Shown one piece after another: positions 30,958-53,000 of a stretch of DNA of 64,000 nucleotides. The position numbers and the translations under genes were made by a program. Each line of letters opens with the position of its first letter. Within the stretch, counting starts at the first letter, position 1. The notes below the pieces were generated by a model, which worked only from the letters and a program-made list of their open reading frames with translations, was not told the DNA's origin and did not search any database. This stretch comes from a virus (taxonomy: Duplodnaviria; Caudoviricetes), in IMG/VR virus record IMGVR_UViG_3300032030_002018; one strand, given 5' to 3'.

Positions 30958-31297
30958 TTGTATATTCCTCGTTTTAATAAGTTTTCTCTTTCCCTTTCAA
31001 AATATTCCATTTGTAACGGTGTAACATTTTCAATCCATTCACTAATATATTTATAATATTTTGGATGCCAATTCATCCTGCATCTCCATTCCAAATATGT
31101 TTTCATTATAGTGGATTACTTTGAATTAAATAATATATATCCTCAACAGTAACCCCCAATGGTGCGTCACTGCCTCTCAATCCATACTTGATGATTACCA
31201 ATAAATCATCTGTTGTTAACTTATCAAGATATTCTTGTATCTTGTCTTTATCAATATTATTTTTAGACATATACATATATTTTTTTGGTTTTCATCG

Positions 31298-31355
31298 CAA
31301 ATGTACATAATTTTTTTTGAATAAGCAAATTTTTTGCCAAGAACTTGATATTTAT
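31298..31355. promoter_or_regulatory. Divergent pair: minus-strand Bacteroidota promoter and plus-strand ATATTTAT motif
   Basis: -7 box 31298-31305, -33 box 31326-31329; ATATTTAT 31348-31355. Confidence 0.7.
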
Positions 31356-31371
31356 ATAAAAAAAAATCACA

Positions 31372-32067
31372 ATGAGAATACAAGAAAATAAGATTAGAAG
31401 GATAGTGTCAGAATCCGTCAGAAAAGTACTCAGGGAATGGGGAAATGAAGGATACGACGAACAATGGGAAGAAGAAATAGAAATGTTCCTTGACGGGTTG
31501 AAAAATGGAAGCGCAATATGTGGCGAAAATGCTGTTTATGTTAATTATGAGGATGATGAAGACAGATACATATATCTTAGACGAGGTGATAGAAGATTAT
31601 GCGACGACAACTATTATATTCAGCACAGTAGAACATTGGACAATGAGGAAATGAAAACCATATTAAATGCATTGAGTAGGTATTATGGAGAAGATTGGTC
31701 TGATGAATATTATGATATTTATGAAGATGAATATTATGAGGAAGGAAGAAGAATATCGCGTCAGCCTTTAAGCGAGGCATATGGATATCCTGAAGGAATA
31801 GATGGTTTGGTACTATGTTCAGAAAACGACAGAGAGTGTTATGACATATATTATGGCATTATCAAAATGTTGAAGAAACATTTCCAAAGAGGCGAAGAAT
31901 TGACAGTTGATAGATTGGCGAATTCTTCAATGATGAAGAAATATCAACAGTTTGTATTTAGAAAATTCAGAGGAGAACAGGAAGGTATGAATAAAACAAC
32001 ACCTTACCAGTTTAGACAATACATTGCAGATAGAATGATTTCACAAGTAACAAATGGTGAATATTAA
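31372..32067 (+). CDS. LxE-leader protein (putative capsid-internal or injected protein)
   Basis: IRRIVSESVRKVLRE leader, acidic body. Confidence 0.7.
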   Translation: MRIQENKIRRIVSESVRKVLREWGNEGYDEQWEEEIEMFLDGLKNGSAICGENAVYVNYEDDEDRYIYLRRGDRRLCDDNYYIQHSRTLDNEEMKTILNALSRYYGEDWSDEYYDIYEDEYYEEGRRISRQPLSEAYGYPEGIDGLVLCSENDRECYDIYYGIIKMLKKHFQRGEELTVDRLANSSMMKKYQQFVFRKFRGEQEGMNKTTPYQFRQYIADRMISQVTNGEY

Positions 32068-32069
32068 TT

Positions 32070-32417
32070 ATGAAAAGAGTTCTATTAAATGAAAATGATT
32101 TACGAAGAATGGTAAACTATGCTGTTAAAACCATCTTGTCAGAAGGTAATAATGGCGCGTTGTATCATAATAAGCCTTTTTGGATTGGAAGTGTCAGTCT
32201 GTTAGATGGCGAAATAGAGGAAGTGCATACATTTGAAGAGGCTGAGGATTGTGATTTTCACCATACATTCGTATTCTCATCTCCGCAAGTAGAGAAAATC
32301 AACAACGAAGAAAACGCTATATTCTGGATTGATGATGGAAAAATACAAGGAACTTGGAGAGTTAATGTTCCACAACATATAATACAAAGAATAAGAGGCC
32401 AAATTAAAATACTCTGA
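32070..32417 (+). CDS. LxE-leader protein
   Basis: LNENDLRRMVNYAVKTILSE. Confidence 0.7.
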   Translation: MKRVLLNENDLRRMVNYAVKTILSEGNNGALYHNKPFWIGSVSLLDGEIEEVHTFEEAEDCDFHHTFVFSSPQVEKINNEENAIFWIDDGKIQGTWRVNVPQHIIQRIRGQIKIL

Positions 32418-32432
32418 TTTTTATGTTTTTGT

Positions 32433-32461
32433 TGGGCAGTCTATAATGACTGCCCTTTTTT
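32433..32461. terminator. Terminator between convergent genes
   Basis: GGGCAGTC-TATAAT-GACTGCCC-TTTTT. Confidence 0.8.
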
Positions 32462-33209
32462 ATTTTTCTGATAATATGAAATCATTTATTCTTTTATTTG
32501 TCATATCAACATACTGTTGGAATTTGTCAAATCCAATATAGTCAAATCCATTCTTTATTGCTGATACAGCTACGGTTCCGCTGCCCATAAAAGGGTCAAG
32601 AACAACTTTGTCGTGATTGTCGTTTGGTATGCAATGTAATATATTATCAGGTAACTTTATTGGAAATGGCGCAGGATGCTCACTATTTGTAATGAATGGA
32701 AAATCCCATACTTCTTTCTTGAATTCTGTATCCCTGAACCTATAGAAATCTGGTGAATTTGATTTCGCAAGCCAAAATATAAGTTCTGTTGTTGGTAAGT
32801 ATTTACCTATGTTGACATTATGTGTTGACTTCCTATCCCATATTATTTCCTGTCTAATCTTGAAAGGGGTTTTGAACAACCATTGATATGGAGATACAAT
32901 GCATCCGTGTCCTTTCCATATTCTGTTCTTGTGGTTATAGAACATACTACCGTTTTCTTTCAGCACCCGATAACACTCTGATAAGATGTCAATCTGCCAT
33001 TGTTGGTATTCATCCTCAGGCAGGTTATCAACATTAACATCACCATTGTATGCGATGTTATAAATCCATTTGCCTTTGATGTCGCTATCGTGATTCAATC
33101 CCTTCTTATTATAAGGCGGAGATGTTATGATTACATCTATTGAATTATCGTCAAGCATTCTCAATCCTTCAAGGACATCAACGCAATATATTTTATTTCT
33201 GTCTAACAT
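32460..33209 (-). CDS. DNA N4-C/N6-A methyltransferase, beta class
   Basis: TSPPY, HPAPFP, VLDPFMGSGT. Confidence 0.9.
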   Translation of the reverse strand: MLDRNKIYCVDVLEGLRMLDDNSIDVIITSPPYNKKGLNHDSDIKGKWIYNIAYNGDVNVDNLPEDEYQQWQIDILSECYRVLKENGSMFYNHKNRIWKGHGCIVSPYQWLFKTPFKIRQEIIWDRKSTHNVNIGKYLPTTELIFWLAKSNSPDFYRFRDTEFKKEVWDFPFITNSEHPAPFPIKLPDNILHCIPNDNHDKVVLDPFMGSGTVAVSAIKNGFDYIGFDKFQQYVDMTNKRINDFILSEK

Positions 33210-33212
33210 TTC

Positions 33213-33395
33213 TTACGCGTGGTTTGATATAATAGCATCACAATCTCTGCTTATTGAATCAGTGTACACTGATTTGATTTCATCAATTTGAGCGTCCGGA
33301 TAAACCTCGTAAAATAATTCTATTGCCTTTTGAATGTCACTGCTAACAACAAACTTATTGTTAATTTTCCAAATTCTAGTATACAGATACGCCAT
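33213..33395 (-). CDS. Hypothetical protein, paralog of 30515..30718
   Basis: Motif. Confidence 0.6.
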   Translation of the reverse strand: MAYLYTRIWKINNKFVVSSDIQKAIELFYEVYPDAQIDEIKSVYTDSISRDCDAIISNHA

Positions 33396-33399
33396 ATTT

Positions 33400-34074
33400 T
33401 TATAATTTTAGTTCTTTATCAATTTTTGCAAGTTTCAAGAAATGCTGTAATTCGTGTACATATTTAACATCCATTATGAATGTTCCATTTTCCCTGGTAA
33501 TACAGAATCTATCTTCTCTTGCCTCGATATTATATCCAATATGCGTTACCTCCGGTATATGTCCTAAAACATAAGTCTCAAATACATTAAGATATTTGGT
33601 TTTGTCAAAATTCTTATTTATAAATTCCCTTGATAAAGGTATTGGATAAAAAACGCAACTAGATATATTACAACGTAGTTGTAAAACTTCGTTTACTCCG
33701 TTTCTTCTGCTATAAACAAAATCGCCATACATTAAATCATCCTTTGTGAGAATTGGTTCTGTTTGTAATAGTGTTTTTGCACTTTCATCCCATTCAAAAC
33801 CTGCTGCTTTTAACTTATTATAAAAGTCAATATATTCAATATTGTTTGCAAATCTTTTATCTTCCAATTGCAACGCAAGTTTATGGTTGTAAAAATACAT
33901 AAATGAGCTATTTGCAATCATACAATAAGCAGATGTAAATAAAATACCGCGTTCTTCTGTAACAGTTCCGTCACAAAGATATATTTGGTGTGATATTTCG
34001 CTAATCAAAACATCGCCATTCTTCAAGTTCTTAATATCTTTCTTATCCATCGATTTTTTTCTCAAAAAATTCAA
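33400..34074 (-). CDS. Hypothetical protein (YVHELQH motif)
   Basis: ORF. Confidence 0.7.
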   Translation of the reverse strand: MNFLRKKSMDKKDIKNLKNGDVLISEISHQIYLCDGTVTEERGILFTSAYCMIANSSFMYFYNHKLALQLEDKRFANNIEYIDFYNKLKAAGFEWDESAKTLLQTEPILTKDDLMYGDFVYSRRNGVNEVLQLRCNISSCVFYPIPLSREFINKNFDKTKYLNVFETYVLGHIPEVTHIGYNIEAREDRFCITRENGTFIMDVKYVHELQHFLKLAKIDKELKL

Positions 34075-34870
34075 CTATTTTTTTAATTTCAACTATTTTA
34101 CCAACATTTGTTGAATCCTTGTCATTCAATTTCTCATTTATTATTGATAAGACAAACATAATACCAATTTTATTTGCATTGATTAAAAGTTCTTCCCATT
34201 TGTTCAGTTTAATACCACTGTCACAATCGTTGAAAACTTTTTTCATAACGCTTAAAGAATTCGACAAATCCAATTCCTTTCCACACGATTTATATGTAAC
34301 AGAATCATTGTTTGAGTCTTCTTTTTTGGATTGGATTTCTCTTATTTCCTCATAATTCAATTCATCAGCAGGTGTGAAAGGATATACTCCTTTATCTTTT
34401 GAATAGCACAAGTTAGCCTTTTTAAGTTCTTCAATATAATCTGACTCCTGTTTCTCTGACGCAAATACAAACTCATTAATCGGTGCTACGAAAATATCAC
34501 CAGTAATGGCATAGCATACAAGTTCATCACAACCGTTATTACCGTTTGCATCATAACTGAAATATTTTTTATCCTTTACAATATAAACATTTCCGTTGAT
34601 ATTAACAACAAAATCCCCAACTTTGAATAAATACTTTCCCCATTCACTCCAATTTCTACACACGCGTTCTGGCCACAAAGAACAAGGATATGAATCATCG
34701 CCAATAAGCTGTCCAAAATTAGAAAAAGAAAAATACTTGTCACCGTCACTTACAATTACCTTTTCATCTGTTGAAATTTCCCTGTATTCTACATATCCAA
34801 ATGAATCAGACCATAATCTCAATCCAGGTCTCGCATTTCTCAAAACTTCGCAAACATTAAACATTTCCAT
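34043..34870 (-). CDS. Hypothetical protein
   Basis: 275-aa ORF. Confidence 0.7.
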   Translation of the reverse strand: MEMFNVCEVLRNARPGLRLWSDSFGYVEYREISTDEKVIVSDGDKYFSFSNFGQLIGDDSYPCSLWPERVCRNWSEWGKYLFKVGDFVVNINGNVYIVKDKKYFSYDANGNNGCDELVCYAITGDIFVAPINEFVFASEKQESDYIEELKKANLCYSKDKGVYPFTPADELNYEEIREIQSKKEDSNNDSVTYKSCGKELDLSNSLSVMKKVFNDCDSGIKLNKWEELLINANKIGIMFVLSIINEKLNDKDSTNVGKIVEIKKIVEFFEKKIDG

Positions 34871-34885
34871 TTGTTTTTAATAAAT

Positions 34886-35599
34886 TTATCCTTTTATTTC
34901 TTTCATTTTTGCAATCGCTTTCTCATCGTGTTCCCACAGATAATAATCAACTTTTTTCTTTTTGTCTTTCTGAAATACCCAAAACACACTGTTATAATTC
35001 CTTGCGTGTTGCTGCTCTTTTATCTGTCCGCTCAACAACCTTGATTTCGCATTCAGATTGAACTTGTCCAATGTTGTAAAACCAGCCTTTTCAGCCTCCA
35101 ACCAAGTATATTCCTCATTTGCGTAGAACCTTGAACTTGATATGGTATTCTGGCATTTCACGACAAATATTCCACCATCCTTCAATATTCTGTAAGCTTC
35201 ATTTATCCAATGATGATAAGACTCGTGTAGTTCATACATTGGATAATAAGAAGAAAACCTCTTTGATATTATACAGCTTCCGTCCTTGATTGGCTTATCA
35301 GTTCTTGGACCACATACAAAAGGTGGGTCAAACATAATACTTAAAACGGATTCATCCTCTAACGGCAAAGAACCCCAGGGTTCAATCTTAACAACATCTT
35401 CCAATTGTGGGAATACATCAAATTTAAGAATTGGTTCAGGAACTTCTATGTCCTTACTGTTCTTCTTTTTATAAAATCCACCAGTACTGTACGTTATATC
35501 AACATCAAATGGGTTTCCATTATTATGCATATTGATAATATTCATAATAATCTCCTTTTGATTAGTGGACACATTTCTTATAACTTCATTATACTCCAT
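34886..35599 (-). CDS. Phage DNA adenine methyltransferase-like protein
   Basis: DITYSTGGFY (SAM-binding motif), FDPPF, RILKDGG. Confidence 0.8.
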   Translation of the reverse strand: MEYNEVIRNVSTNQKEIIMNIINMHNNGNPFDVDITYSTGGFYKKKNSKDIEVPEPILKFDVFPQLEDVVKIEPWGSLPLEDESVLSIMFDPPFVCGPRTDKPIKDGSCIISKRFSSYYPMYELHESYHHWINEAYRILKDGGIFVVKCQNTISSSRFYANEEYTWLEAEKAGFTTLDKFNLNAKSRLLSGQIKEQQHARNYNSVFWVFQKDKKKKVDYYLWEHDEKAIAKMKEIKG

Positions 35600-35883
35600 T
35601 TAAAAATCGTATTTTTTAATTCTTTTGTTTTTAACGGTATTTTTGTTGTGTCTAATTGTTTAATGTTGTTGAACACGTCAAAAAAAGACAAATAACTGTA
35701 AGTATGTGCAATAGCCTTAACATCCAATAAAGTTCCATCTTTTGAAACAATTGTGGAGTACTCTTTTTGTTTTAAAATATCTAACAAACATTGTAACCAT
35801 TTACTGTTTTCATTACTACATCCATCAATTGCTTTCTGTGCGGACGAAACAATTTCCTCATAATTACGATATCTAGTTACCAT
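35578..35883 (-). CDS. Hypothetical protein
   Basis: ORF after promoter. Confidence 0.55.
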   Translation of the reverse strand: MVTRYRNYEEIVSSAQKAIDGCSNENSKWLQCLLDILKQKEYSTIVSKDGTLLDVKAIAHTYSYLSFFDVFNNIKQLDTTKIPLKTKELKNTIFKWSIMKL

Positions 35884-35900
35884 CTATTTCATTTTTTTAG

Positions 35901-35949
35901 CAAATATATACAAATATTTTAAGAAAAACAAATATATTAAGATATTTAT
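35901..35949. promoter_or_regulatory. Divergent pair: minus-strand Bacteroidota promoter and plus-strand ATATTTAT motif
   Basis: -7 box 35901-35908, -33 box 35929-35932; ATATTTAT 35942-35949. Confidence 0.7.
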
Positions 35950-35982
35950 TAAGAAAAATAAGAATTTTATAATAGATATAAT

Positions 35983-36366
35983 ATGAAAAAGAGAATTAGA
36001 CTAACAGAATCTGACTTGCATAGAATCGTGAATGAGTCAGTGAAAAGAGTGTTGAGAGAAGGTGGACATTTATATTGGACTGATGATGAAGGTAATGCAC
36101 ATACAAATTCAACAGATTTATATAGAGGTGTTGATGGTGCGATATTGGTAAGTCACGGAGAATGGTCAGACCCTGAAATATTGTATAAAAAACATTCTAT
36201 TAACTATTGGGACGCAGAAGAATTACTTTGGAGTCATTATAAAGACTTTTGTGAAGAGAATGGTATAGAACCAACAGAAGACAAATTTGATGAATATGTT
36301 GAAGAATATGAGGATGTTGAAGGTGCCCTTGATGACCTTGTTTGGGCATTAGATGGAAATCCATAA
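35983..36366 (+). CDS. LxE-leader protein
   Basis: MKKRIRLTESDLHRIVNESVKRVLRE. Confidence 0.75.
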   Translation: MKKRIRLTESDLHRIVNESVKRVLREGGHLYWTDDEGNAHTNSTDLYRGVDGAILVSHGEWSDPEILYKKHSINYWDAEELLWSHYKDFCEENGIEPTEDKFDEYVEEYEDVEGALDDLVWALDGNP

Positions 36367-36386
36367 TTGACTATTATTATAACATA

Positions 36387-36426
36387 AAAACGGTGAGTTT
36401 AATTAAAAACTCACCGTTTCTTTTTT
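36387..36426. terminator. Terminator
   Basis: AAACGGTGAGTTT...AAACTCACCGTTT then T run. Confidence 0.8.
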
Positions 36427-36464
36427 AAATTCACACTTACTTAATTTTTCTCAATTAAAAGATA

Positions 36465-36893
36465 TTAGCACATATCGCTAATACCTTTAACATACAGTCT
36501 TGTATTAAGCACAATCAGATACTTTCTGTATTGTTCCCTATCCAATGTGTAATACACATTCCTAAGGTTATACTTAATGAGGTTCTCATATATCCTGCTC
36601 TTAGTGTCAATGAACTCTATATAAGGTACAGAGTCAAACTCCTCAATCAGGATGTTGTGGAACTTCTCAAACGAATCCTTCTGACTGTCATCAATCTCAA
36701 TGAACTCCTCAATCTTGTTCACATCATCAATCATCGTTTCAAGACTGTCAACAGTAATAGTATCTTTTACACTCTTTGAATGTGATGGCGTACTCATCCC
36801 GAGTACGAATACTACCATAAATAATAACATTTTTTTCATTTCGCTCTTACTTTTTACTATAATTTTTATCATTTTACTCCACTGTGTGCGCAC
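36465..36893 (-). CDS. Exported helical protein
   Basis: MKKMLLF signal peptide. Confidence 0.65.
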   Translation of the reverse strand: MRTQWSKMIKIIVKSKSEMKKMLLFMVVFVLGMSTPSHSKSVKDTITVDSLETMIDDVNKIEEFIEIDDSQKDSFEKFHNILIEEFDSVPYIEFIDTKSRIYENLIKYNLRNVYYTLDREQYRKYLIVLNTRLYVKGISDMC

Positions 36894-37023
36894 ACAGCGA
36901 AAGTTTATAAAAAAAACCCGCAGTTTACCCTTGGGAGTTACTTAACTAATATTTTTTCGCACTTCTATAATATAAATATATCGAACTTTCAAAAAGTATC
37001 GATTTTTTTTAATTTCAACAATG

Positions 37024-37071
37024 CAAATATACATAAAATATATGTAAAAACCAAATTTTTTAGATATTTAT
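37024..37071. promoter_or_regulatory. Divergent pair: minus-strand Bacteroidota promoter and plus-strand ATATTTAT motif
   Basis: -7 box 37024-37031, -33 box 37052-37055; ATATTTAT 37064-37071. Confidence 0.7.
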
Positions 37072-37092
37072 TTAATAAAAAATAGCAATGTT

Positions 37093-37629
37093 ATGAGAAA
37101 AAGGATAAGATTAACTGAAAATGAGTTAAATTCTTTAGTGAACAAATCTGTTAAAAGGATATTAAGTGAAACACACTGGCGAACGAGTTTAGATGCATAT
37201 AATAAATCGTCAGAATTGGTAGACGGTGTTTACCACATAATAGATAATCTTAGGGAGGTTGAAAGTTTTTTAAGAGACTATGCTGAATCTGTTAAAGGAG
37301 CAAAACCAATGTATGTTAAATTTGCAGGGTACATAGATGAAATATTCAACTATCTTATGAGAAAACACGACCAAATGTCGAATTTTGAAGAACTTTCTGA
37401 CGAAAATTTTAAAAATCAGCACGATGGAAAAACATTATCTCAATATACGGATGATTTTGAAAATGAAACTATGAGAGATGACTTTGAAGGGTTTAATGAT
37501 ACCAACGACCCAAGTGGTAAAAAAAGAAAATTCCAAGATTATTATGACGGTCCAAGTACTTACCAAAGAAGAACTGGGGAATACATACCAAATCCGGACT
37601 ATTATGAAAAATCAAGAAGGGCTAGGTAA
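37093..37629 (+). CDS. LxE-leader protein
   Basis: MRKRIRLTENELNSLVNKSVKRILSE. Confidence 0.75.
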   Translation: MRKRIRLTENELNSLVNKSVKRILSETHWRTSLDAYNKSSELVDGVYHIIDNLREVESFLRDYAESVKGAKPMYVKFAGYIDEIFNYLMRKHDQMSNFEELSDENFKNQHDGKTLSQYTDDFENETMRDDFEGFNDTNDPSGKKRKFQDYYDGPSTYQRRTGEYIPNPDYYEKSRRAR

Positions 37630-38648: not shown

Positions 38649-38915
38649 CAGTATGTTAAAACTTGAACAAACTTGTCTGTCCATTATTAACTTCTTGCTT
38701 CAACCTACCACTGCTTTTTAGTGCCTCATCACTGAGTCTGTCATCCACAGTTGGATAGTCCACAAGCATAAATTCTGTAGTACTGCTACCTACTATTCTT
38801 AAACCTTCATCAAGTATGTTTAACGCTGCATTGTAGTCTCGCTCAATCACTTCACCACAAACAGGGCATAACCATTGTCTGTCACTCAACTTCAGTTCTT
38901 TATTGCTCTTAACAT
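38649..38915 (-). pseudogene. tnpB: IS607-type tnpB with large internal deletion, retaining the omegaRNA/right end (about 38649-38790)
   Basis: MLRAIK joined out of frame via AATAAAG microhomology to [27 protein letters not shown]. Confidence 0.8.
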
Positions 38916-38926
38916 AAATTTCCTAT

Positions 38927-39022
38927 TTAATCATCTTCTGTACACCACATACCACCAGGACAACTTGTGTCATTAAACGGACAGTCGGTACATTTATCTT
39001 TATTTTCTTCTTTGTTGTTCAT
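38927..39022 (-). CDS. 31-aa Cys-rich peptide (CTDCPFNDTSCPGGMWC)
   Basis: Manual translation; ATGA-coupled. Confidence 0.5.
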   Translation of the reverse strand: MNNKEENKDKCTDCPFNDTSCPGGMWCTEDD

Positions 39023-39300
39023 TTTCTTCTGTTAAATTCATCTATAATATTTTGTGACGGTTTGCCAACTGATGCCAAATACTTATAGTAAAGTTTTTTG
39101 CAAACAAATGGGTTTCCATTACAACCGTCTGTATCTTTATGCGACCAAGGAAGCATACATTCAGGATAGCCATTATCCCACCACTCACATTCGTTTCCAA
39201 ATTCAAAAAGCAATTTATTCGCCTTTCTATTAACAGATGTTCTTTGTTTATTTTTTCCCATCTTTCTTATTTTTTCTCCTTTCAGCACTTCTGCGTCCAT
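39019..39300 (-). CDS. Small Cys-containing protein (probable start MGKNKQ)
   Basis: ORF. Confidence 0.6.
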   Translation of the reverse strand: MDAEVLKGEKIRKMGKNKQRTSVNRKANKLLFEFGNECEWWDNGYPECMLPWSHKDTDGCNGNPFVCKKLYYKYLASVGKPSQNIIDEFNRRK

Positions 39301-39649
39301 AATACTTCCCTGAGAATGAAGCCAACAGTGACATCATATCAGCAGCCAATTCCTCAGTATCAGATACGTCCATACCATTTATCACAATTACCTCACACCC
39401 ATAACTCTCAAACATCTTCTTGATGAACTTGAATTGGAATCGTGTAAGTCTATCCTTATGTTCTATTACCAACTTATTGACCTTTTGTTTTATTATCAAG
39501 TCAGTCAGTTTAACAAAGCCACTTCTATTGTCATTCAAACCACTACCAACATCTTTTATTATATGTGTGACAAGCATTCCTTTCTTGGCGCAATACTCAG
39601 ATAGTCTCTGTGATTGTCTATCCAAATCACCTTTCTGTTTTTGCTCATC
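39248..39649 (-). pseudogene. tnpA: 5'-truncated IS607 serine-recombinase transposase
   Basis: EQKQKGDLDRQ, DVGSGLN, HKDRLTRF, EELAADMMSLLASFSGKYYGRRS; HTH and catalytic YARVS absent. Confidence 0.85.
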
Positions 39650-40622: not shown

Positions 40623-41510
40623 TTATTTTTCGTTTTTATCTTCCTGAATCAATTCAAATGGTTCTTCCTTTGTTTCTTCAACTCTTTTCTGCGCAATATC
40701 ACAGTATCGTCTGTCAATATCAATTCCAATATAATGTCTGCCAGTCCTTTTTGCAACAGCACAGGTTGTTCCAACTCCATTGAATATATCCATCACAGTA
40801 TCTCCACGAAAGCTGAATAGTCTAAGGATTCTATCTGCAATTGCTTCTGGAAACATTGCAGGATGTCCCCATTCTTTCATATTCCTTTCACCAGGAATAT
40901 TCCATATATTGCTCTTTACCCATTCAGAGAACTCTAATTTCTGCATATCGTCAGAGTTGTATGGCTGTTTAAAATGCTTTATATCACCTTTTGAATATAT
41001 CTCAATAAATTCAACCATAGATTTCATATATGGACTTGAAGAACTCAAATAACTACCCCAACAGGAATAATGTACATTGCGATTATTCTTATTCCATATA
41101 ATCTCATTTCGCCATATCATTTTATTCTCAATCATCAATGATGTTATCATATGATGTGTTGGAATAAAATCACTCATCAATGGCATTGTGTTTATTGCGA
41201 TTCTACCACCATATTTCGTTACACGTATTACCTCTTTTAATATTGCGAATAATTGATTGAAATATTCCTCATTGGTGGATGTATCGTCATATTCACCATA
41301 TTCCTTGCCAAAATTATATGGTGGGGAAGTAAAGGTCAAATCAATGCAATTGTCAGGCAATGTTTTTAAAAACTCCAAACTATCTGCACATATAATAGCA
41401 TCATTTATTGGAGAATCATTGTTGACCTTTGAAAAGGTATTGCCATTGGCATAATAATGCAATACCCTTTTGTTCTTTCTCTTATTTATTATTTTCTTTG
41501 TTTCAGACAT
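40623..41510 (-). CDS. DNA N4-C/N6-A methyltransferase, beta class
   Basis: TSPPY, HPAMFP, DIFNGVGTT. Confidence 0.9.
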   Translation of the reverse strand: MSETKKIINKRKNKRVLHYYANGNTFSKVNNDSPINDAIICADSLEFLKTLPDNCIDLTFTSPPYNFGKEYGEYDDTSTNEEYFNQLFAILKEVIRVTKYGGRIAINTMPLMSDFIPTHHMITSLMIENKMIWRNEIIWNKNNRNVHYSCWGSYLSSSSPYMKSMVEFIEIYSKGDIKHFKQPYNSDDMQKLEFSEWVKSNIWNIPGERNMKEWGHPAMFPEAIADRILRLFSFRGDTVMDIFNGVGTTCAVAKRTGRHYIGIDIDRRYCDIAQKRVEETKEEPFELIQEDKNEK

Positions 41511-42134
41511 CTTTATATACCTTTATTTTTAAGGTCTTCTACAACATATAATAATATTTTTTTATTTTACCTAAGTTGTATATACCTTTATTTTTAAGGT
41601 CTTCTACAACATACTCCTACCTTTCTTTTCTGATTCTATGTTGTATATACCTTTATTTTTAAGGTCTTCTACAACATTATTGCAAAAGTCTGCTACGATT
41701 CATAGTTGTATATACCTTTATTTTTAAGGTCTTCTACAACATTTTCTAACTATCGAACCATAAGGCATCTGTTGTATATACCTTTATTTTTAAGGTCTTC
41801 TACAACACATTCGCTAACAAATCCTTTGACTTGGCAGTTGTATATACCTTTATTTTTAAGGTCTTCTACAACAGGGGGGGGATGTGTTGATGGTATGTGG
41901 TGTTGTATATACCTTTATTTTTAAGGTCTTCTACAACTTGGTGCTATGCTTTCAAGGATAAGTTTAAGTTGTATATACCTTTATTTTTAAGGTCTTCTAC
42001 AACTCATTTGGAGACATCCTTTTAGAACCTTCGTTGTATATACCTTTATTTTTAAGGTCTTCTACAACCACCAAGACATTATATAAATGGTGCAAAGAGT
42101 TGTATATACCTTTATTTTTAAGGTCTTCTACAAC
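41510..42134. CRISPR. CRISPR array: 10 x 36-nt repeats (+ strand GTTGTATATACCTTTATTTTTAAGGTCTTCTACAAC), 9 spacers of 29-30 nt
   Basis: Repeats start at 41510 (degenerate), 41575, 41640, 41705, 41771, 41837, 41902, 41968, 42033, 42099. Confidence 0.97.
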
Positions 42135-42182
42135 CTATGACGCATAACTCTTTATTTGTCAGTTGTTTATGACCATTTTTGT

Positions 42183-42336
42183 GATGTAAAAGACCATTAT
42201 TTTAAGGTCGTGGCATTCATTTTGCCACAGTTTTTCTGTTTCATTCTACCACTACTTTTTAGCGAATTGTTTCCAATTGGGTCATCCATAGTTGGGTAGT
42301 CCGCAGACTTAACATCCCCGATACACCTGGGTAGGG
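42183..42336 (-). ncRNA. IS607-type omegaRNA scaffold ending in an anti-repeat (tracrRNA-like)
   Basis: GCGGACTACCCAACTATGGATGAC...CTAAAAAGTAGTGGTAGAATGAAACA core shared with 38649-38790 and 46507-46652; GACCTTAAAA complementary to repeat. Confidence 0.75.
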
Positions 42337-42359
42337 TTTTTAATTGTTTTCCTTCAATG

Positions 42360-43604
42360 TTATTTTGTTTCTGTCAGAATTCTATATCCTTCGTTCCTGA
42401 TATTTATCGCTGCATTTATATCCCTATCGTGTTCTATTCCGCATTGTGGGCATTTCCACATTCTTATTTTTAAGTTCTTTAATTCCTTGTTTTGATATCC
42501 ACAATTTGAGCATATCTGAGAACTTGGATAAAATCTGTCTATAACAGATAAGTTCTTTCCGTACCAATCACACTTATATGTAAGTTGTCGTCTCATTTCT
42601 CCCATATTGGCGTTTGTTATTGATTTTGCTATATGGTGATTTTTGACCATTCCCTTGACATTCAAATCCTCAATGCAAATAGTGTTGATGTTATCATTAT
42701 TCTTCGCCACATATGAAGTGATTTGGTGTGTATTGTAATTTCTTTTACCTGCTATTCTATTTTGTAATTTTGCAATCTTGTCTTTAAGTTTAATGTAATT
42801 TTTAGAAGGAACTTTAACCTCAACATCCTTGTTATACTTGTGTGAAAACACTGTCTCACCGGTTTTTATCCATTTTTTCTTGGATAGTTTTCTTTCAAGT
42901 TTTTTAAGTCTTTTTTCAAGTTTGGAATCCTTTTCATTCGTCGGAAATTTTGTGCCGTCAGACGTAATGGCATTTGAGTCTGTCTTAACACCCATATCAA
43001 TTCCAATAGATTTTTCTATTGATGGAGTTTCCTTTTCTTTTGCCTTAAAATCGTCATCGCATAGAATTGATATTTCATAGTAATCAAATGATTTCTTTGA
43101 AATAGTAAATTGGGTGATTCTACCCTGTATTTTTTTATGCAGTATAATTTTCACCCAATGAGGATGTCTTGGATTTTGTGGGTTAACAATTCTTACAAGA
43201 GATTTTTTGAAATTGAAAATCTTTTTGTTATCAGTTTCTTGTATTTGTATTGCAAATGAATTTCCGTATTTTTTACTTTTAAACCTAGGTTCATCCGCAA
43301 GTTTTTTAAACCATCTATCAAAAGCAGAATCAAGGTTTGACGCTGTATATATATAAGATATAGCTGGTGCTACCTTTAAAAATTCTGTATCTTGATTTCT
43401 TTTCAATACAGGAAGGTCTCTTGACACATCATATTGTGCGCTTAAGTGTTTTTTAGCTGTATCATTGTCTTTGTTTTCTTGATAATGTTTTTTTATTTTC
43501 TCTAAACAGTAATTCCACCACCAAACATTTGACTTAAAACATTTGTCAAAATATTCTTTTTGTTCATCGTTAGGATATATCCTGTATTTATATGCTCTTT
43601 TCAT
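42360..43604 (-). CDS. tnpB: CRISPR-adjacent TnpB/Cas12f-like RNA-guided nuclease (414 aa)
   Basis: AYKYRIYP N-terminus; RuvC-I GIDMG, RuvC-II IEDL, Zn finger CSNC/CPQC, RuvC-III DRDINAAINI. Confidence 0.9.
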   Translation of the reverse strand: MKRAYKYRIYPNDEQKEYFDKCFKSNVWWWNYCLEKIKKHYQENKDNDTAKKHLSAQYDVSRDLPVLKRNQDTEFLKVAPAISYIYTASNLDSAFDRWFKKLADEPRFKSKKYGNSFAIQIQETDNKKIFNFKKSLVRIVNPQNPRHPHWVKIILHKKIQGRITQFTISKKSFDYYEISILCDDDFKAKEKETPSIEKSIGIDMGVKTDSNAITSDGTKFPTNEKDSKLEKRLKKLERKLSKKKWIKTGETVFSHKYNKDVEVKVPSKNYIKLKDKIAKLQNRIAGKRNYNTHQITSYVAKNNDNINTICIEDLNVKGMVKNHHIAKSITNANMGEMRRQLTYKCDWYGKNLSVIDRFYPSSQICSNCGYQNKELKNLKIRMWKCPQCGIEHDRDINAAINIRNEGYRILTETK

Positions 43605-44050
43605 TTTCTGTTAAAATGAGGGTGTCTCATAAAACGCTTGAATTGCTTCCTTGATTCATAATATTTTGCGACTTTGAACTCCTTGTCATATACATATCCA
43701 CAGTATATTCCACCGTTATCATACCATAATATTACTCGGCGTTCATCCTCTTTTACATTGAACTCAAAATGTCTTCCAAAACAATAGCTGTTATATAGCA
43801 CAATAGCCATAGAACCATCAGAAGTCTTCTTGATAATCATTTTGTCCTTATGAGGAACTGGTGCCATATAATCACCATTCCCTAATGATATGAACTCATC
43901 ATTATCAATGTCCTTGTCAAAATGAATCATAATACGCTCAATGGGTAATGAATCAACTACCTCATACTTTGAAAAATCAAATGGTTTCATTTGAGCGAAT
44001 ACAAACGAAGATATTGAAAATACAACTAAACTTAAAATGAACTTTTTCAT
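43601..44050 (-). CDS. Exported protein, ATGA-coupled to the TnpB-like gene
   Basis: Signal peptide MKKFILSL...VFAQ. Confidence 0.7.
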   Translation of the reverse strand: MKKFILSLVVFSISSFVFAQMKPFDFSKYEVVDSLPIERIMIHFDKDIDNDEFISLGNGDYMAPVPHKDKMIIKKTSDGSMAIVLYNSYCFGRHFEFNVKEDERRVILWYDNGGIYCGYVYDKEFKVAKYYESRKQFKRFMRHPHFNRK

Positions 44051-44072: not shown

Positions 44073-44202
44073 AACCGCGTGACGGAATCGAACCGTCATC
44101 TTTCGATTACAAGTCGAATGTTAAAACAGGAAAATTGCTGTTAGTCGCTTTAAAATATCATCAAACGGCATTTACAATATTCTACCATTGAACTAACGCG
44201 GT
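44073..44202 (-). tRNA. tRNA-Thr(TGT)-like gene with about 59-nt insertion between D and anticodon arms
   Basis: All four arms pair; insert about 44120-44178. Confidence 0.7.
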
Positions 44203-46506: not shown

Positions 46507-46652
46507 CTGTACGCTAAATTCTGAACAAACTTGTCTGTTCATTATTAACTTCTTGTTTCATCCTACCACTACTTTTTAGTACCTCATAGCTGAGTGTGTC
46601 ATCCATAGGAGGGCAGTCCGCAAGCGTAAATTCGGGTGTACAGCACCCTACG
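46507..46652 (-). ncRNA. Stand-alone IS607-type omegaRNA scaffold without tnpB
   Basis: Homologous to 38649-38790; own promoter at 46688-46719. Confidence 0.75.
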
Positions 46653-46687
46653 TTTAATAGATAAATACTCATTTTTTATTTACAATG

Positions 46688-48852: not shown

Positions 48853-50052
48853 CTACCCACAAACTAAAGATTTGTGGGCTTCTGACTTCATTGCTGACTG
48901 CCATTGAAATGGTCTTACATCTGCTCCATCAGTGTAATCGACAGTTCCTGCCGATATATTTCTTAATCCTTCTGCAAGGATATTCATTGCTGCATTAACA
49001 TCTCTGTCAAGAACTTCTCCACAATTTGGACAAGTCCATTCCCTATCTTTCAACGATAAGTCTTCTTTAACCCAACTACAACAATGGCAAGTCTTTGAAG
49101 ATGGGTAGTATCTACCTATCTTCACTACTTTCTTATTGTTCATAACTGCCTTGTAAGTAAGCATTGAAAGGAATGCTCCCCAACTTGCATCAGATATACT
49201 CTGAGCAAGTCTATGGTTTCTTTGCATACCCTTTACATTCAAGTCCTCACAACAAATTACATCATAATTCCTGATTAAGTCGGTGCTAATCTTATGTAAT
49301 TTGTCAAACCTACAGTTATGAATTTTCTCTTGTATTCTCGCAACCTTAATTCTTTGTCTGTTCCAAGAATTACTACCTTTCTGCTTTCTTGACAAATGTT
49401 TCTGCGATTTTGCAAGCTCTTTTGAATAACGCTTGATGAATTTGTTACTTGAATATCTCTTACCATCACTTGTGACTACCAAGTCTTTTAACCCCAAGTC
49501 TATACCAACCTTTGCATTGGTTTTCTGCAACGGTTCATATATAACTTGAGTAAGTATGGAAACATAATATTTTCCGCTCGGTGTAACAGAGATTGTCATA
49601 TTTCTGACATCGCCACCTTTGAATGGTCTATACTCCACTATCTTAATCCCATCTTTGAACTTTGGAATATATATCCTACCATTCTCAACAGAACAATGCT
49701 GTGGTATACGAAAACTTCCGCCATTTTTCTTTGCCTTGAATCTTGGAAACCTTGCATTACCACTAAAAAAATTAGTATATGCCGTTTCAAGATTTCTCAG
49801 TGCGAATTGAAGTGTCTGTGAATTGATTTCCTTTAACCACAAGTATTCTTCTTGTCTTTTTAGTTTGGTAAGTGCGCTTGCTTGTACATAGTAATTGTCA
49901 CTTTTACCATTATCAGTGTATTGCTGTTTTCTTTCAGCAAGAAAATGATTATAGACAAAACGTACAGACCCAAAATACCTTGCAAGTATTTGCTCTTGCT
50001 CCTTATTTGGGCACATTCTGTACTTATATGTCTTTAAAATCACTTTCATCAT
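48853..50052 (-). CDS. tnpB: IS605-family TnpB
   Basis: GIDLG, CEDL, CHCC/CPNC, DRDVNAAMNI. Confidence 0.93.
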   Translation of the reverse strand: MMKVILKTYKYRMCPNKEQEQILARYFGSVRFVYNHFLAERKQQYTDNGKSDNYYVQASALTKLKRQEEYLWLKEINSQTLQFALRNLETAYTNFFSGNARFPRFKAKKNGGSFRIPQHCSVENGRIYIPKFKDGIKIVEYRPFKGGDVRNMTISVTPSGKYYVSILTQVIYEPLQKTNAKVGIDLGLKDLVVTSDGKRYSSNKFIKRYSKELAKSQKHLSRKQKGSNSWNRQRIKVARIQEKIHNCRFDKLHKISTDLIRNYDVICCEDLNVKGMQRNHRLAQSISDASWGAFLSMLTYKAVMNNKKVVKIGRYYPSSKTCHCCSWVKEDLSLKDREWTCPNCGEVLDRDVNAAMNILAEGLRNISAGTVDYTDGADVRPFQWQSAMKSEAHKSLVCG

Positions 50053-50143
50053 TTAAAATATAGTTAAAAACTATCTCTTTTCAATAATAAATATTAGATA
50101 ATTTACAAAAAGTTCCTATTTTTTGTAAAAAATATTTTTTATT

Positions 50144-50242
50144 ATGAGTTATTTTTCTAAAAATTGGTCTAACGGATATTTTGTATGCTCCATTAGTGAA
50201 GCAAATCCTGATACTATTAGAAAGTACATTGAGAATTAAGGT
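50144..50242 (+). pseudogene. tnpA: Internally deleted tnpA remnant
   Basis: 5' ATGAGTTATTTTTCTAA joined to W.NGYFVCSISEANPDTIRKYIEN. Confidence 0.8.
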
Positions 50243-50299
50243 TTATGCAATTCATCCCATTAACTAAAGATTAATGGGTTTTCTTGCATTATTTATATA

Positions 50300-50343
50300 A
50301 AAAATAAAAGCTGCTGAAACTTTTTTGGAGGTATCAACAGCTT
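50300..50343 (-). terminator. Terminator or attenuator hairpin after short leader ORF
   Basis: AAGCTGTTGA...TCAGCAGCTT-TTATTTTT. Confidence 0.6.
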
Positions 50344-50375
50344 GGGAAATATATAGTTAAGTAAGTGCGCCAATT

Positions 50376-50495
50376 TTACATCATATATTTTTCAAACTGT
50401 TTTAACCTTTTATTATTGGTATACGCCGGTGTATCACATTCTTGAATTGAATGTGAAAGACAAATGGATGGATATTTCTGACTAAAATTTTTCAT
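50376..50495 (-). CDS. 39-aa putative leader peptide
   Basis: Manual translation MKNFSQKYPSICLSHS...KYMM; ATATTTAT at 50524-50531. Confidence 0.4.
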   Translation of the reverse strand: MKNFSQKYPSICLSHSIQECDTPAYTNNKRLKQFEKYMM

Positions 50496-51054
50496 TATAT
50501 GTTTAAGGTGATAATTTCTTTTTATAAATATATATAAATTTTTGAAAAAAACAAAATTTTTGAAAATATTTTTTAAAAAGTTTCCATAAAATTCACCAAA
50601 TCAATATAATTTTGTTCAGCGACAAAACTAACAATAGTTGATATTGCCTTTTTTATTCTTTCTGCATTTTCAGTATAACATTCCTCGTATGGCTTATATG
50701 GTGTCAGTCTATCGTGTTGTTTTGGTCTATTGGAATAATATTCGGAAACAGTTTTAAAATGATTTTTAATAGCACTATAATCTTGATTTAACACTTCTAC
50801 AACAGCTTCGTTTAAACAATTTAGTCTAAACTCTACCTTGTTTTTACTAAGTGGGTCTATATCTATATCCACAAACCTCTTACAAAGGGCAGGTACTCTC
50901 TCTCTCCAATGATTAACGACTTGACTGTCTGGATAAAGACACAAACATACTAAATTGTCTACAATAGCATCTAAAACCTCACCGAATTTATCAGTCATTT
51001 TATATTTTCTATGCAAGAAAACCCATTAATCTTTAGTTAATGGGATGAATTGCA

Positions 51055-51453
51055 TCAGCCTTGATTCTCAATATACTTTCTAATAGTATCAGGATTCGCT
51101 TCACCAATAGAACATACAAAATATCCATCAGACCAAAAAGTATGTTCCTTCCAAAAATGTTTTCTTAGTATTGGTTGGAACTCTTTCCAAAGTCTGTTTG
51201 TACTTACTTGTTTCAATACTCTGACAATTGAAGTAACTGTAATATTTGGCGGATAACTAATAAGAAGATGTATATGGTCTTTGTCCGTTTCCATTATCTC
51301 AATATCAAAGTCACATCTACTTTCTACTTCCTTAAATACTAAAAGAACACATTCTCTAATTTCAGAAACAAGTAGTTGTTTCCTGTACTTACAGACAAAT
51401 ATTAAGTGACATTTCAAGTAAAACTTGTGTCTATTATTAGAAAAATAACTCAT
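51055..51453 (-). CDS. tnpA: Y1 (HUH) transposase
   Basis: DHIHLL, FWSDGYF, YIENQ. Confidence 0.93.
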   Translation of the reverse strand: MSYFSNNRHKFYLKCHLIFVCKYRKQLLVSEIRECVLLVFKEVESRCDFDIEIMETDKDHIHLLISYPPNITVTSIVRVLKQVSTNRLWKEFQPILRKHFWKEHTFWSDGYFVCSIGEANPDTIRKYIENQG

Positions 51454-51560
51454 ATCAAAATATTTTTTTTACAAAAATAGTAACTTTTTGTAAATTATTT
51501 GATATTTATTATTGAAAAGAGATAGTTTTTAACTATATTTTAAACGTAAACGTAAAGAAT

Positions 51561-51785
51561 ATGGAAGTTATTAAAGGAATAAGTCTAAACGATGTACAAA
51601 AAGCAAAAGATACTTTGATAGAAGATGCAGAGATAATGAAGGCACTAAGAGATAGACTTAAAGAACAAGATGTTCCACTGCAAGAACAGAATGACATAAG
51701 GAAAAAGGTGATAGATATTCTTTCAAAGGATTTGTTGATAACAATGAATCTGTCAAGTTGCGCTGATATTATAAATGTTTGGTAA
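51561..51785 (+). CDS. Passenger ORF inside IS605
   Basis: 74 aa, absent from the other copy. Confidence 0.6.
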   Translation: MEVIKGISLNDVQKAKDTLIEDAEIMKALRDRLKEQDVPLQEQNDIRKKVIDILSKDLLITMNLSSCADIINVW

Positions 51786-51803
51786 ATAAGTAAAGATAAT
51801 TAT

Positions 51804-53000
51804 ATGAAAGTGATTTTAAAGACATATAAGTACAGAATGTACCCAAATAAGGAGCAAGAGCAAATGCTTGCAAAGTATTTTGGGTCCGTACGTTTTGTCT
51901 ATAATCATTTTCTTGCCGAAAGAAAACAACAATACACTGAGAATGGAAAAAGTGATAACTATTATGCACAAGCAAGCACACTTACCAAACTAAAAAAACA
52001 AGAAGAATACTTGTGGCTAAAGGAAATCAATTCGCAAACACTTCAATTCGCACTTAGAAATCTTGAAACTGCATATACTAATTTCTTTAGGGGTAATGCA
52101 AGATTTCCAAGATTCAAGGCAAAGAAAAATGGTGGGAGTTTCCATATACCACAACATTGTTCTGTGGAGAATAGTAGAATTTACATACCAAAGTTCAAAG
52201 ATGGAATTAAAATAGTAGAACACAGACCATTCAAAGGCGGAGATGTCAGAAATATGACAATCTCTGTCACACCAAGCGGAAAATATTATGTTTCCATACT
52301 TACACAAGTTACATACGAGCCTTTACAGAAAACCAATGCAAAGGTTGGTATAGACTTGGGGTTGAAAGACTTGGTAATCACAAGTGATGGTAAAAAGTAT
52401 TCAAGCAATAAGTTCATTAAGCGTTATTCAAAAGAACTTGCAAAAGCACAGAAACACTTGTCAAGAAAGCAGAAAGGTAGCAATTCTTGGAACAGACAAA
52501 GAATTAAGGTTGCAAGAATACAAGAGAAAATTCACAATTGTAGATTTGATAAGTTACATAAAATTAGTACTGACTTAATCAGGAACTATGATGTAATTTG
52601 TTGTGAGGACTTGAATGTTAAAGGTATGCAAAGAAACCATAGACTTGCTCAGTCAATATTAGATGCAAGTTGGGGAGCATTCCTTTCAATGCTTACTTAC
52701 AAGGCAGTTATGAATGATAAACAAGTAGTGAAGATAGGTAGATACTACCCATCTTCAAAAACTTGTCATCATTGTGGTTGGGTTAAAGAAGACTTATCGT
52801 TGAAAGATAGGGAATGGACTTGTCCAAATTGTGGAGAAGTTCTTGACAGAGATGTTAATGCAGCAATGAATATCCTTGCAGAAGGATTAAGAAATATATC
52901 GGCAGGAACTGTCGATTACACTGATGGAGCAGATGTAAGACCCTTTCAAGGGCAATCAGCAAAGAAGTCAGAAGCCCACAAATCTTTAGTTTGTGGGTAG
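51804..53000 (+). CDS. tnpB: IS605-family TnpB, close paralog of 48853..50052
   Basis: RuvC D/E/D and Zn finger. Confidence 0.93.
   Translation: MKVILKTYKYRMYPNKEQEQMLAKYFGSVRFVYNHFLAERKQQYTENGKSDNYYAQASTLTKLKKQEEYLWLKEINSQTLQFALRNLETAYTNFFRGNARFPRFKAKKNGGSFHIPQHCSVENSRIYIPKFKDGIKIVEHRPFKGGDVRNMTISVTPSGKYYVSILTQVTYEPLQKTNAKVGIDLGLKDLVITSDGKKYSSNKFIKRYSKELAKAQKHLSRKQKGSNSWNRQRIKVARIQEKIHNCRFDKLHKISTDLIRNYDVICCEDLNVKGMQRNHRLAQSILDASWGAFLSMLTYKAVMNDKQVVKIGRYYPSSKTCHHCGWVKEDLSLKDREWTCPNCGEVLDRDVNAAMNILAEGLRNISAGTVDYTDGADVRPFQGQSAKKSEAHKSLVCG

Follow-up and report, generated by a model that had tools for sequence, protein, structure and literature searches.

A clade of phage TnpB-like nucleases with linked CRISPR arrays and a putative omegaRNA-derived tracrRNA

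Introduction

About 50 independent associations between TnpB and CRISPR arrays have been inferred (PMC12669027), and 40 V-U* branches, V-U6 to V-U45, have been listed (PMC10691335). In TranC, as the work of Jin 2025 (10.1016/j.cell.2025.09.004) is cited in two later papers (PMC13565253, PMC13639567), the omegaRNA is split into a tracrRNA and a crRNA; a TranC-like system, in these accounts, has a TnpB-sized RuvC effector of IS605 lineage with an array downstream, a split omegaRNA and no adaptation genes. TranC clade 9, with an average length of 414 aa, includes CauTranC9, an active member from a Caudoviricetes genome whose spacers target phages (10.64898/2026.03.27.714800). The type VI-B systems are also relevant here. 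Their hallmarks include a 36 + 30 nt geometry and GTTG/CAAC repeat ends, their repeats carry a poly-U loop, and Cas13b requires no tracrRNA (10.1101/092577).

We analyzed a window of 64,000 nt from a Caudoviricetes record (IMGVR_UViG_3300032030_002018), in which a first-pass annotation had described a minimal CRISPR-TnpB system with a captured type VI-B-like array. Likened by its described features, the system is, as judged from sequence, of TranC type, a kind already described (TranC, V-U*, CauTranC9). It has every TranC feature testable here: a compact RuvC effector derived from TnpB, clade-wide linkage to an array without a transposase and, computationally, a reRNA-derived tracrRNA predicted to pair with the repeat. 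Like CauTranC9, the protein has 414 aa with no domain expansion over ISDra2 TnpB, and its array is phage-borne and without cas genes. The two differ in repeat length (36 nt versus a reported 38 bp), in the number of repeats (10 versus 5) and in the RNA, since a clear tracrRNA is predicted here and no consistent structure was reported there. The phage clade, compared by published description only, may or may not be TranC clade 9. A literature search on TnpB arrays of rumen jumbo phages found no report.

Results and Discussion

The locus and its source phage

The window belongs to a phage genome of 334,687 bp (96% complete by CheckV), and the runs bearing the locus come from the guts of sheep, cattle, and goats. 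TTTG-N17-22-TAnnTTTG is the promoter pattern of Bacteroidota; it was counted 101 times, compared with about 15 in shuffles, and this excess points to a Bacteroidota host. The data point to a large phage that infects Bacteroidota of the rumen as the source. A sigma-70 promoter scan gave a result at chance level, and recoding of TAG or TGA proved unnecessary to read the TnpB-array locus.

The first-pass annotation had described a 414-aa TnpB with an intact D-E-D triad and zinc finger, ATGA-coupled to a phage gene and 225 bp from an array of ten repeats with nine different spacers. All of these features were recovered (Table 1). The tnpB ATG overlaps the stop codon (TGA) of a 149-aa ORF (43601-44050), a neighbor that is not kept across the clade, and the gap between tnpB and the array occupies 42135-42359 (225 nt). 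The reported absence of cas1 and cas2 extends to the whole genome, as HMMs for Cas1, Cas2, Cas9, and Cas13b found no match in its 334,687 bp; the Cas13b model (NF038190) matched host genomes as a positive control. A Cas13b or Cas9 elsewhere in the genome, named in the first pass as what might otherwise explain the array, was looked for and gave no match. The array at 41510-42134 is the sole real CRISPR array of the phage.

Nine of the repeats are perfect 36-nt copies, while the terminal one at 41510 has three mismatches; this degenerate end places the array on the minus strand, to be read after tnpB. The spacers, all different, are 29-30 nt long. The distance from the leader side is also conserved, the first repeat lying 93-97 nt past a GAAAAA motif in 15 of 16 clade loci. 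A related strain (57 differences over 1,994 nt) has an identical repeat and different spacer content, and locus L018 has one extra spacer at the leader end when compared to L019. The strain differences and this leader-end gain indicate that the arrays are being updated without a phage cas1 or cas2.

Table 1. Features of the TnpB-array locus (positions in the window)
Feature	Position	Strand	Remarks
CRISPR array	41510..42134	-	10 repeats of 36 nt, 9 spacers; read in tnpB direction
Leader	42135..42182	-	First repeat spacing kept across the clade
Putative omegaRNA-derived tracrRNA scaffold	42165..42336	-	Colinear with IS605-type omegaRNAs; 3' boundary approximate
Predicted anti-repeat GGUCUUUUACAUC (42195-42183)	42183..42195	-	12/13 pairs with repeat nt 1-13
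ACCUU segment (42208-42204)	42204..42208	-	Predicted to pair with repeat AAGGU; would stand in for ancestral terminal-stem base
Stem-loop 1, loop GUGUA (42326-42322)	42317..42331	-	UGUA in predicted pseudoknot with repeat-end UACA
TnpB-like RNA-guided nuclease, 414 aa	42360..43604	-	RuvC D203/E312/D395; zinc finger C365/C368/C385/C388
149-aa phage ORF, family unassigned	43601..44050	-	ATGA-coupled to tnpB; context only

The TnpB-like protein

The three RuvC acidic residues are invariant in an alignment of 72 sequences, as are the four zinc-finger cysteines in the clade alignment. Three TnpB Pfam domains were found in the 414-aa protein. Among NCBIfam models it clears only the general guided_TnpB cut-off, falling short of those for Cas12f2 (33 vs 450 bits) and C2c8 (70 vs 350 bits), and an ordinary IS605 TnpB outscores it with the PADLOC Cas12f and Cas12u4 models. 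An AlphaFold model (pLDDT 87.8) best matches ISDra2 TnpB (Z 30.4, rmsd 2.7 Å, 331 aligned residues), followed by ISFba1 TnpB (Z 29.1), with Cas12f and LaTranC lower at about 21. The phage Cas12r (Lalka), Cas12l (lambda), Cas12j, and the V-U6 to V-U45 candidates (PMC10691335) resemble the system in being phage-borne, compact RuvC effectors whose arrays depend on host adaptation. However, Cas12r has 564 aa and is tracr-independent, while Cas12l and Cas12j have about 700 aa or more and far lower structural scores (Z ~12).

The first pass had also drawn attention to insertions relative to IS605 TnpBs. One, at about residues 244-266, is real; the AlphaFold model shows it as a beta-hairpin capping the RuvC helical (bridge-helix) hairpin. 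It is not diagnostic, because array-linked 385-aa members lack it and a comparable one is present in the non-array TnpB L196, and the same observations rule it out as the CRISPR adaptation. LaTranC (PDB 9jfo, 478 aa) is the only significant PDB match to this region (E 5.6e-5) and carries its own insertion at that bridge-helix site, but it matches only the C-terminal half of the phage protein, whose N-terminal 190 aa match ISDra2 TnpB instead. The common insertion may reflect shared descent or parallel change.

Conservation of the TnpB-array linkage

A homolog search returned about 88 clusters at 43-61% identity, as well as a 385-aa group near 40%. In the protein tree, 111 sequence clusters, loci-derived TnpBs included, form one clade (FastTree 1.0), which has an SH-aLRT support of 94.9 on 72 sequences (IQ-TREE). 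The phylogeny against other TnpBs that had been proposed as a check gives one monophyletic lineage, with IS605-type loci in its sister group.

A scaffold (described below) and an array are present in all 16 distinct clade loci examined, that of the 414-aa TnpB included, versus 1 of 216 controls (1/151 + 0/65), these being non-clade TnpB loci with enough flank. The supposition that homologs are array-linked is borne out by this comparison. Loci were picked mostly by the length of their contigs and regardless of array status; L085 drew notice because of its array, and its clade membership came from the tree afterwards. The cassette lies 3' of the gene in 15 of the 16 loci. It is found 3.4 kb upstream in L015 and in two copies in L191, and these cassettes apart from the gene indicate that the RNA works in trans. 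The lack of an adjacent tnpA, already reported for the source phage, applies throughout, as no Y1 or serine tnpA occurs near any examined clade locus, while one is present at 50 non-clade loci.

Most clade members have their own Bacteroidota-type promoter, and their neighbors are phage genes that vary between loci. The lineage is widespread and found only in phage-like contigs; a search of GTDB genomes with one peptide pattern, which is weak evidence, found no clade member. The linkage between TnpB and array is real and conserved, but the clade is old and widespread and does not represent a recent event in the source phage.

An omegaRNA-derived tracrRNA in the gap

The 225-nt gap, overlooked in the first pass, appears to hold an omegaRNA-derived tracrRNA with an anti-repeat, as well as the leader. 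The scaffold begins about 24 nt past the tnpB stop, is about 170 nt long and can be aligned across loci. Its best non-clade matches are IS605-type omegaRNAs with G(T/C)TCAC ends, at L112, L148, L137, and L123; all four loci fall in the sister group of the clade in the protein tree, and L112 and L148 have a Y1 tnpA nearby. These omegaRNAs are colinear with the scaffold from the 5' end as far as the terminal hairpin, and by sequence comparison the scaffold is a near-complete IS605-type omegaRNA minus its last ~10 nt (GGTAGTTCAC). The repeat 3' end GGTATATACAAC is predicted to supply this missing end in trans. In the IS605 elements, the terminal GTTC or GCTC that precedes AC and the guide pairs with a 5' loop, (G)GAAC or (G)GAGC; the phage-clade counterpart is a loop (G)TGTA predicted to pair with TACA at the repeat 3' end, with AC and the spacer after it. 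Similarly, the ancestral terminal-stem base GCC/GGT corresponds to scaffold ACC plus repeat GGT, with the anti-repeat next to it. The clade hairpin AAAAGCGATTTT has been lost at the 414-aa TnpB locus.

The system shares its fold, catalytic triad, omegaRNA core, and pseudoknot geometry with the IS200/IS605 TnpB-omegaRNA systems (ISDra2 and the four sister-group loci), but differs in having no tnpA near any clade locus, no TTCAC right end, a guide that the array would supply, and an extra hairpin and anti-repeat, the right end being replaced by anti-repeat and array. An IS607 origin of the scaffold, first suggested by a core common to IS607 remnants in the window, was rejected because the IS605-type loci match the whole scaffold and fall in the sister group. 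Rfam contains no family for the scaffold, and RAGATH-18 gave no match.

In the named scaffold structure, 83% of cells are paired and 23 pairs have double-sided changes, compared to 38-48% paired in slid controls. The four predicted pseudoknot pairs are 100% paired in 14 loci, with one wobble (L188) and one compensatory change (L107), the only one within the clade. Repeats of different loci share 12-31 of 36 positions, and the predicted binding of each scaffold's 3' part favors its own: in 15 of 16 scaffolds the own repeat ranks first or second of 16, at a mean predicted energy of -14.5 vs -8.5 kcal/mol (0/100,000 permutations, p<1e-5). These energies are predictions on AT-rich RNA, and column shuffles ignore relatedness among loci. 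Such comparison suggests that the tracrRNA co-evolves with the repeat across the clade. As the system keeps this ~170-nt tracrRNA, it is more than a protein and an array.

A single contig from a sheep rumen RNA run covers tnpB, the scaffold, and the first repeat; from a bovine RNA run came a 244-nt contig at 42106-42349. Because assembled contigs cannot show ends, strand, or level, these provide a weak hint; the absence of spacer contigs from RNA run X2 is uninformative.

Origin of the repeat

A pattern of repeat ends and spacing, which by design fixes the repeat ends, was searched over 185,579 species. Seven species matched, and six of the matches are true arrays, all in Bacteroidales (Dysgonomonas, Parabacteroides, Prevotellaceae, Tannerella, and Odoribacteraceae). 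A confirmed Cas13b adjoins three of the six, and no other cas type adjoins any. The system has in common with Bacteroidales VI-B its 36-nt GTTGTA...GGTAAATACAAC repeats, 29-30-nt spacers and lack of its own Cas1-Cas2. Unlike VI-B, it has a RuvC DNA nuclease as effector, a putative tracrRNA and a predicted guide formed by the spacer 3' of the repeat. The description of the array as type VI-B-like holds for repeat length, spacer size, and ends, which match Bacteroidales Cas13b arrays, but not for the loop, which is A-rich here rather than poly-U. Reading the array as a VI-B array in reverse was also considered and discarded: the ends of the host repeats align without inversion, and the middle gives no indication.

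Capture of the repeat from a VI-B locus is a plausible candidate origin. Identity to host VI-B repeats reaches 29/36, and 27/36 for the 414-aa TnpB locus, with the ends fixed by the pattern; in the middle 18 nt the sense orientation is no closer to the host repeats than the reverse. It is possible, although we consider it the lesser prospect, that the repeat arose instead by duplication of the omegaRNA's own 3' end, or by convergence on the preferences of host Cas1-Cas2. The behavior of the middle 18 nt fits such an origin, as does the mapping of the last 12 nt of the repeat onto the IS605 right end (GGT...PK...AC), and de novo arrays from omegaRNA duplication have been named as one route (PMC10691335). 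Against it stand the geometry and the GTTG/CAAC ends, both VI-B hallmarks (10.1101/092577), and the composition of the pattern matches, six of seven being Bacteroidales arrays, with a confirmed Cas13b beside three and no other cas type beside any.

Proposed mechanism and alternatives

The locus very probably represents a domesticated, phage-encoded type V-like system of the TranC kind that uses two RNAs. This proposal builds on what comparison among loci shows, namely clade-wide linkage, omegaRNA ancestry, a predicted repeat-specific anti-repeat, intact catalytic residues, and spacer turnover. The tnpB transcript would continue through scaffold, leader, and array. The repeat 3' end would then complete the omegaRNA pseudoknot and the terminal-stem base, while the new anti-repeat pairs with the repeat 5' half; in the resulting tracrRNA:crRNA pair, the spacer after the repeat would serve as the guide. 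Host RNase III, the TnpB RuvC domain, or both may trim the duplex. Given the intact D-E-D triad and TnpB biochemistry, the complex would cut spacer-matching dsDNA beside a 5' motif. Host Bacteroidales Cas1-Cas2, already serving VI-B-type 36-nt repeats, may add spacers at the leader end.

Alternatively, one transcript of scaffold, leader, first repeat, and first spacer (or, at the 414-aa TnpB locus, one using the cis pseudo-end at 42183-42195) could serve as a single guide, the array then storing memories of which only the latest spacer is read. In each of the 16 loci the array directly adjoins the scaffold cassette, the 414-aa TnpB locus has a repeat-like cis segment ending in TACATC, and an RNA contig runs from scaffold to first repeat. 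Nevertheless this arrangement is improbable: a TACAAC or TGCAAC end is kept by most repeats along each array, any repeat could pair with the anti-repeat, and the separated cassettes of L015 and L191 imply an RNA acting in trans. Far less credible still is that the array feeds a host Cas13b, as a hijacked VI-B array beside which TnpB is an unrelated transposon remnant. Repeat length and ends do match Bacteroidales Cas13b arrays, and the phage genome contains no other effector. Yet Cas13b requires no tracrRNA (10.1101/092577), whereas each repeat here is tracked by a predicted scaffold anti-repeat, the linkage is clade-wide with fixed spacing, and the A-rich loop contrasts with the poly-U of VI-B repeats.

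Targets, adaptation, and role

The search for protospacers and a shared TAM/PAM that the first pass had proposed yielded none in the phage, plasmid, viral, and Bacteroidales collections searched. None was found in the phage's own genome, in INPHARED phages and PLSDB plasmids (for the array of the 414-aa TnpB locus and three homologous arrays) or in two sets of large viral records (29 and 21). Two spacers, searched as exact 20-mers, had no target in IMG/VR, and comparison of all spacers to all loci gathered, at up to 5 mismatches, found no protospacer. In 401 genomes of one Bacteroidales family there was no target; four matches were chance matches to the repeat and neither arrays nor targets. 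With no protospacer in these collections, no PAM was derivable from them.

A precedent for the adaptation step is a Flavobacterium VI-B array that gains spacers via II-C Cas1-Cas2 in trans, in which transcription that begins at the leader sets the acquisition motif 5' of the spacer (PMC8092290), the side TnpB needs. By analogy, the phage array may use the same host route. As no protospacer was found, we infer, and go no further than inferring, VI-B capture, host Cas1-Cas2 use, and phage-phage competition.

If the dual-RNA mechanism is correct, the role we favor, with some reserve, is protection of the infected cell from co-infecting phages or mobile elements. A less likely role is the cutting or repression of the host chromosome, resident prophages, or ICEs to aid infection. 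The phage Cas12r aims at host integrative elements (10.64898/2026.04.20.719267), and no phage protospacer appeared in the collections searched, both of which would suit it; on the other hand, the 401 genomes of one Bacteroidales family gave only chance coding matches, and CauTranC9 spacers target phages (10.64898/2026.03.27.714800).

Significance

The transposon-to-CRISPR concept is already published, which makes a further instance less of a surprise; the distinctive points of this one are its clear ancestral mapping and its VI-B-type repeat. Tentatively, and against somewhat adverse odds, the clade could be an unlisted phage-restricted TranC clade (385-420 aa) that kept the IS605 omegaRNA near-whole and had a host VI-B repeat grafted on as its missing 3' end. 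If this is true, a DNA nuclease reads arrays built for an RNA-targeting system and updated by host Cas1-Cas2, and at least 16 co-evolving tracrRNA-repeat pairs, along with close IS605 ancestors, trace the omegaRNA split at base resolution. Fused near ancestors, 16 split versions, and a mappable split point provide a natural series from a transposon guide RNA to tracrRNA plus crRNA. The series makes testable an origin of type V by the borrowing of VI-B arrays and host adaptation in Bacteroidota, as well as the use of such systems by rumen jumbo phages against competitors. Few array-linked nucleases are smaller than these proteins, and their RNAs offer an obvious single-guide design; this small size and design make them candidates for compact editors.

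TnpB loci within and outside the clade

Two members of the array-linked phage TnpB clade, L015 and L191, carry the scaffold and array as a cassette separate from tnpB, located 3.4 kb (L015:2590-2940) and 1.9 kb (L191:3123-3560) upstream of the gene; because these cassettes sit away from the gene, they suggest that the scaffold/array RNA acts in trans. A divergent clade member (34%; L085:5290-6020) has a scaffold about 50 nt longer and a repeat that begins GCTG, yet it retains the predicted pseudoknot and the leader spacing.

A viral TnpB unrelated to the clade (L010:750-1150) has an array of 37-nt repeats about 150 nt downstream, and its tail is omegaRNA-like but different; this is a separate TnpB-CRISPR association. 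Another non-clade TnpB (L196:2832-4200) lacks an array, has an omegaRNA of the IS607 type, and contains a beta-hairpin insertion resembling that of the clade. The conserved motif of the CRISPR scaffold, GAAGCAGAAAAA, is also present in sequence flanking a host Cas13b array (L204:600-650), probably by chance.

Related elements and other features of the window

The IS607 remnant contains a serine tnpA fragment scoring above the NF033518 cut-off and an omegaRNA that shares the central core with the CRISPR scaffold; its TACTG end is predicted to pair with its loop CAGTA. The omegaRNA copy without a gene directly precedes a tRNA-Gly, so the 5' end of this tRNA would be its guide. The two IS605 tnpB genes are very similar, point outward from a single tnpA, and both have the right end GTAGTTCAC.

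Features of the window
Feature	Position	Strand	Remarks
IS607 remnant	38649-39625	-	serine tnpA fragment, truncated tnpB, omegaRNA
Last spacer and degenerate repeat	41510-41574	-	adjoin DNA methyltransferase ATG
tRNA-Thr(UGU)-like gene, interrupted	44075-44201	-	~60-nt insert between D arm and anticodon arm
IS607-type omegaRNA copy without gene	46507-46672	-	loop CTGTA, end TACAG
IS605 tnpB pair and Y1 tnpA	48853-53000		tnpBs divergent around tnpA 51055-51453

The last spacer of the array is AT-rich and similar to promoter regions of the same phage, and may serve as the promoter of the adjoining methyltransferase gene. In L186 a methyltransferase likewise follows the array, but on the opposite strand. 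The tRNA-Thr(UGU)-like gene was not called by ARAGORN, and its Rfam match covers only part of it. Numerous paralogous small ORFs with N-termini MTQEEK or MTQEDK..LLLKDLCARL occupy 1250-22200 (- strand), and an ORF family with the N-terminus MKKRIRLTE lies on the + strand near 31000-37600.
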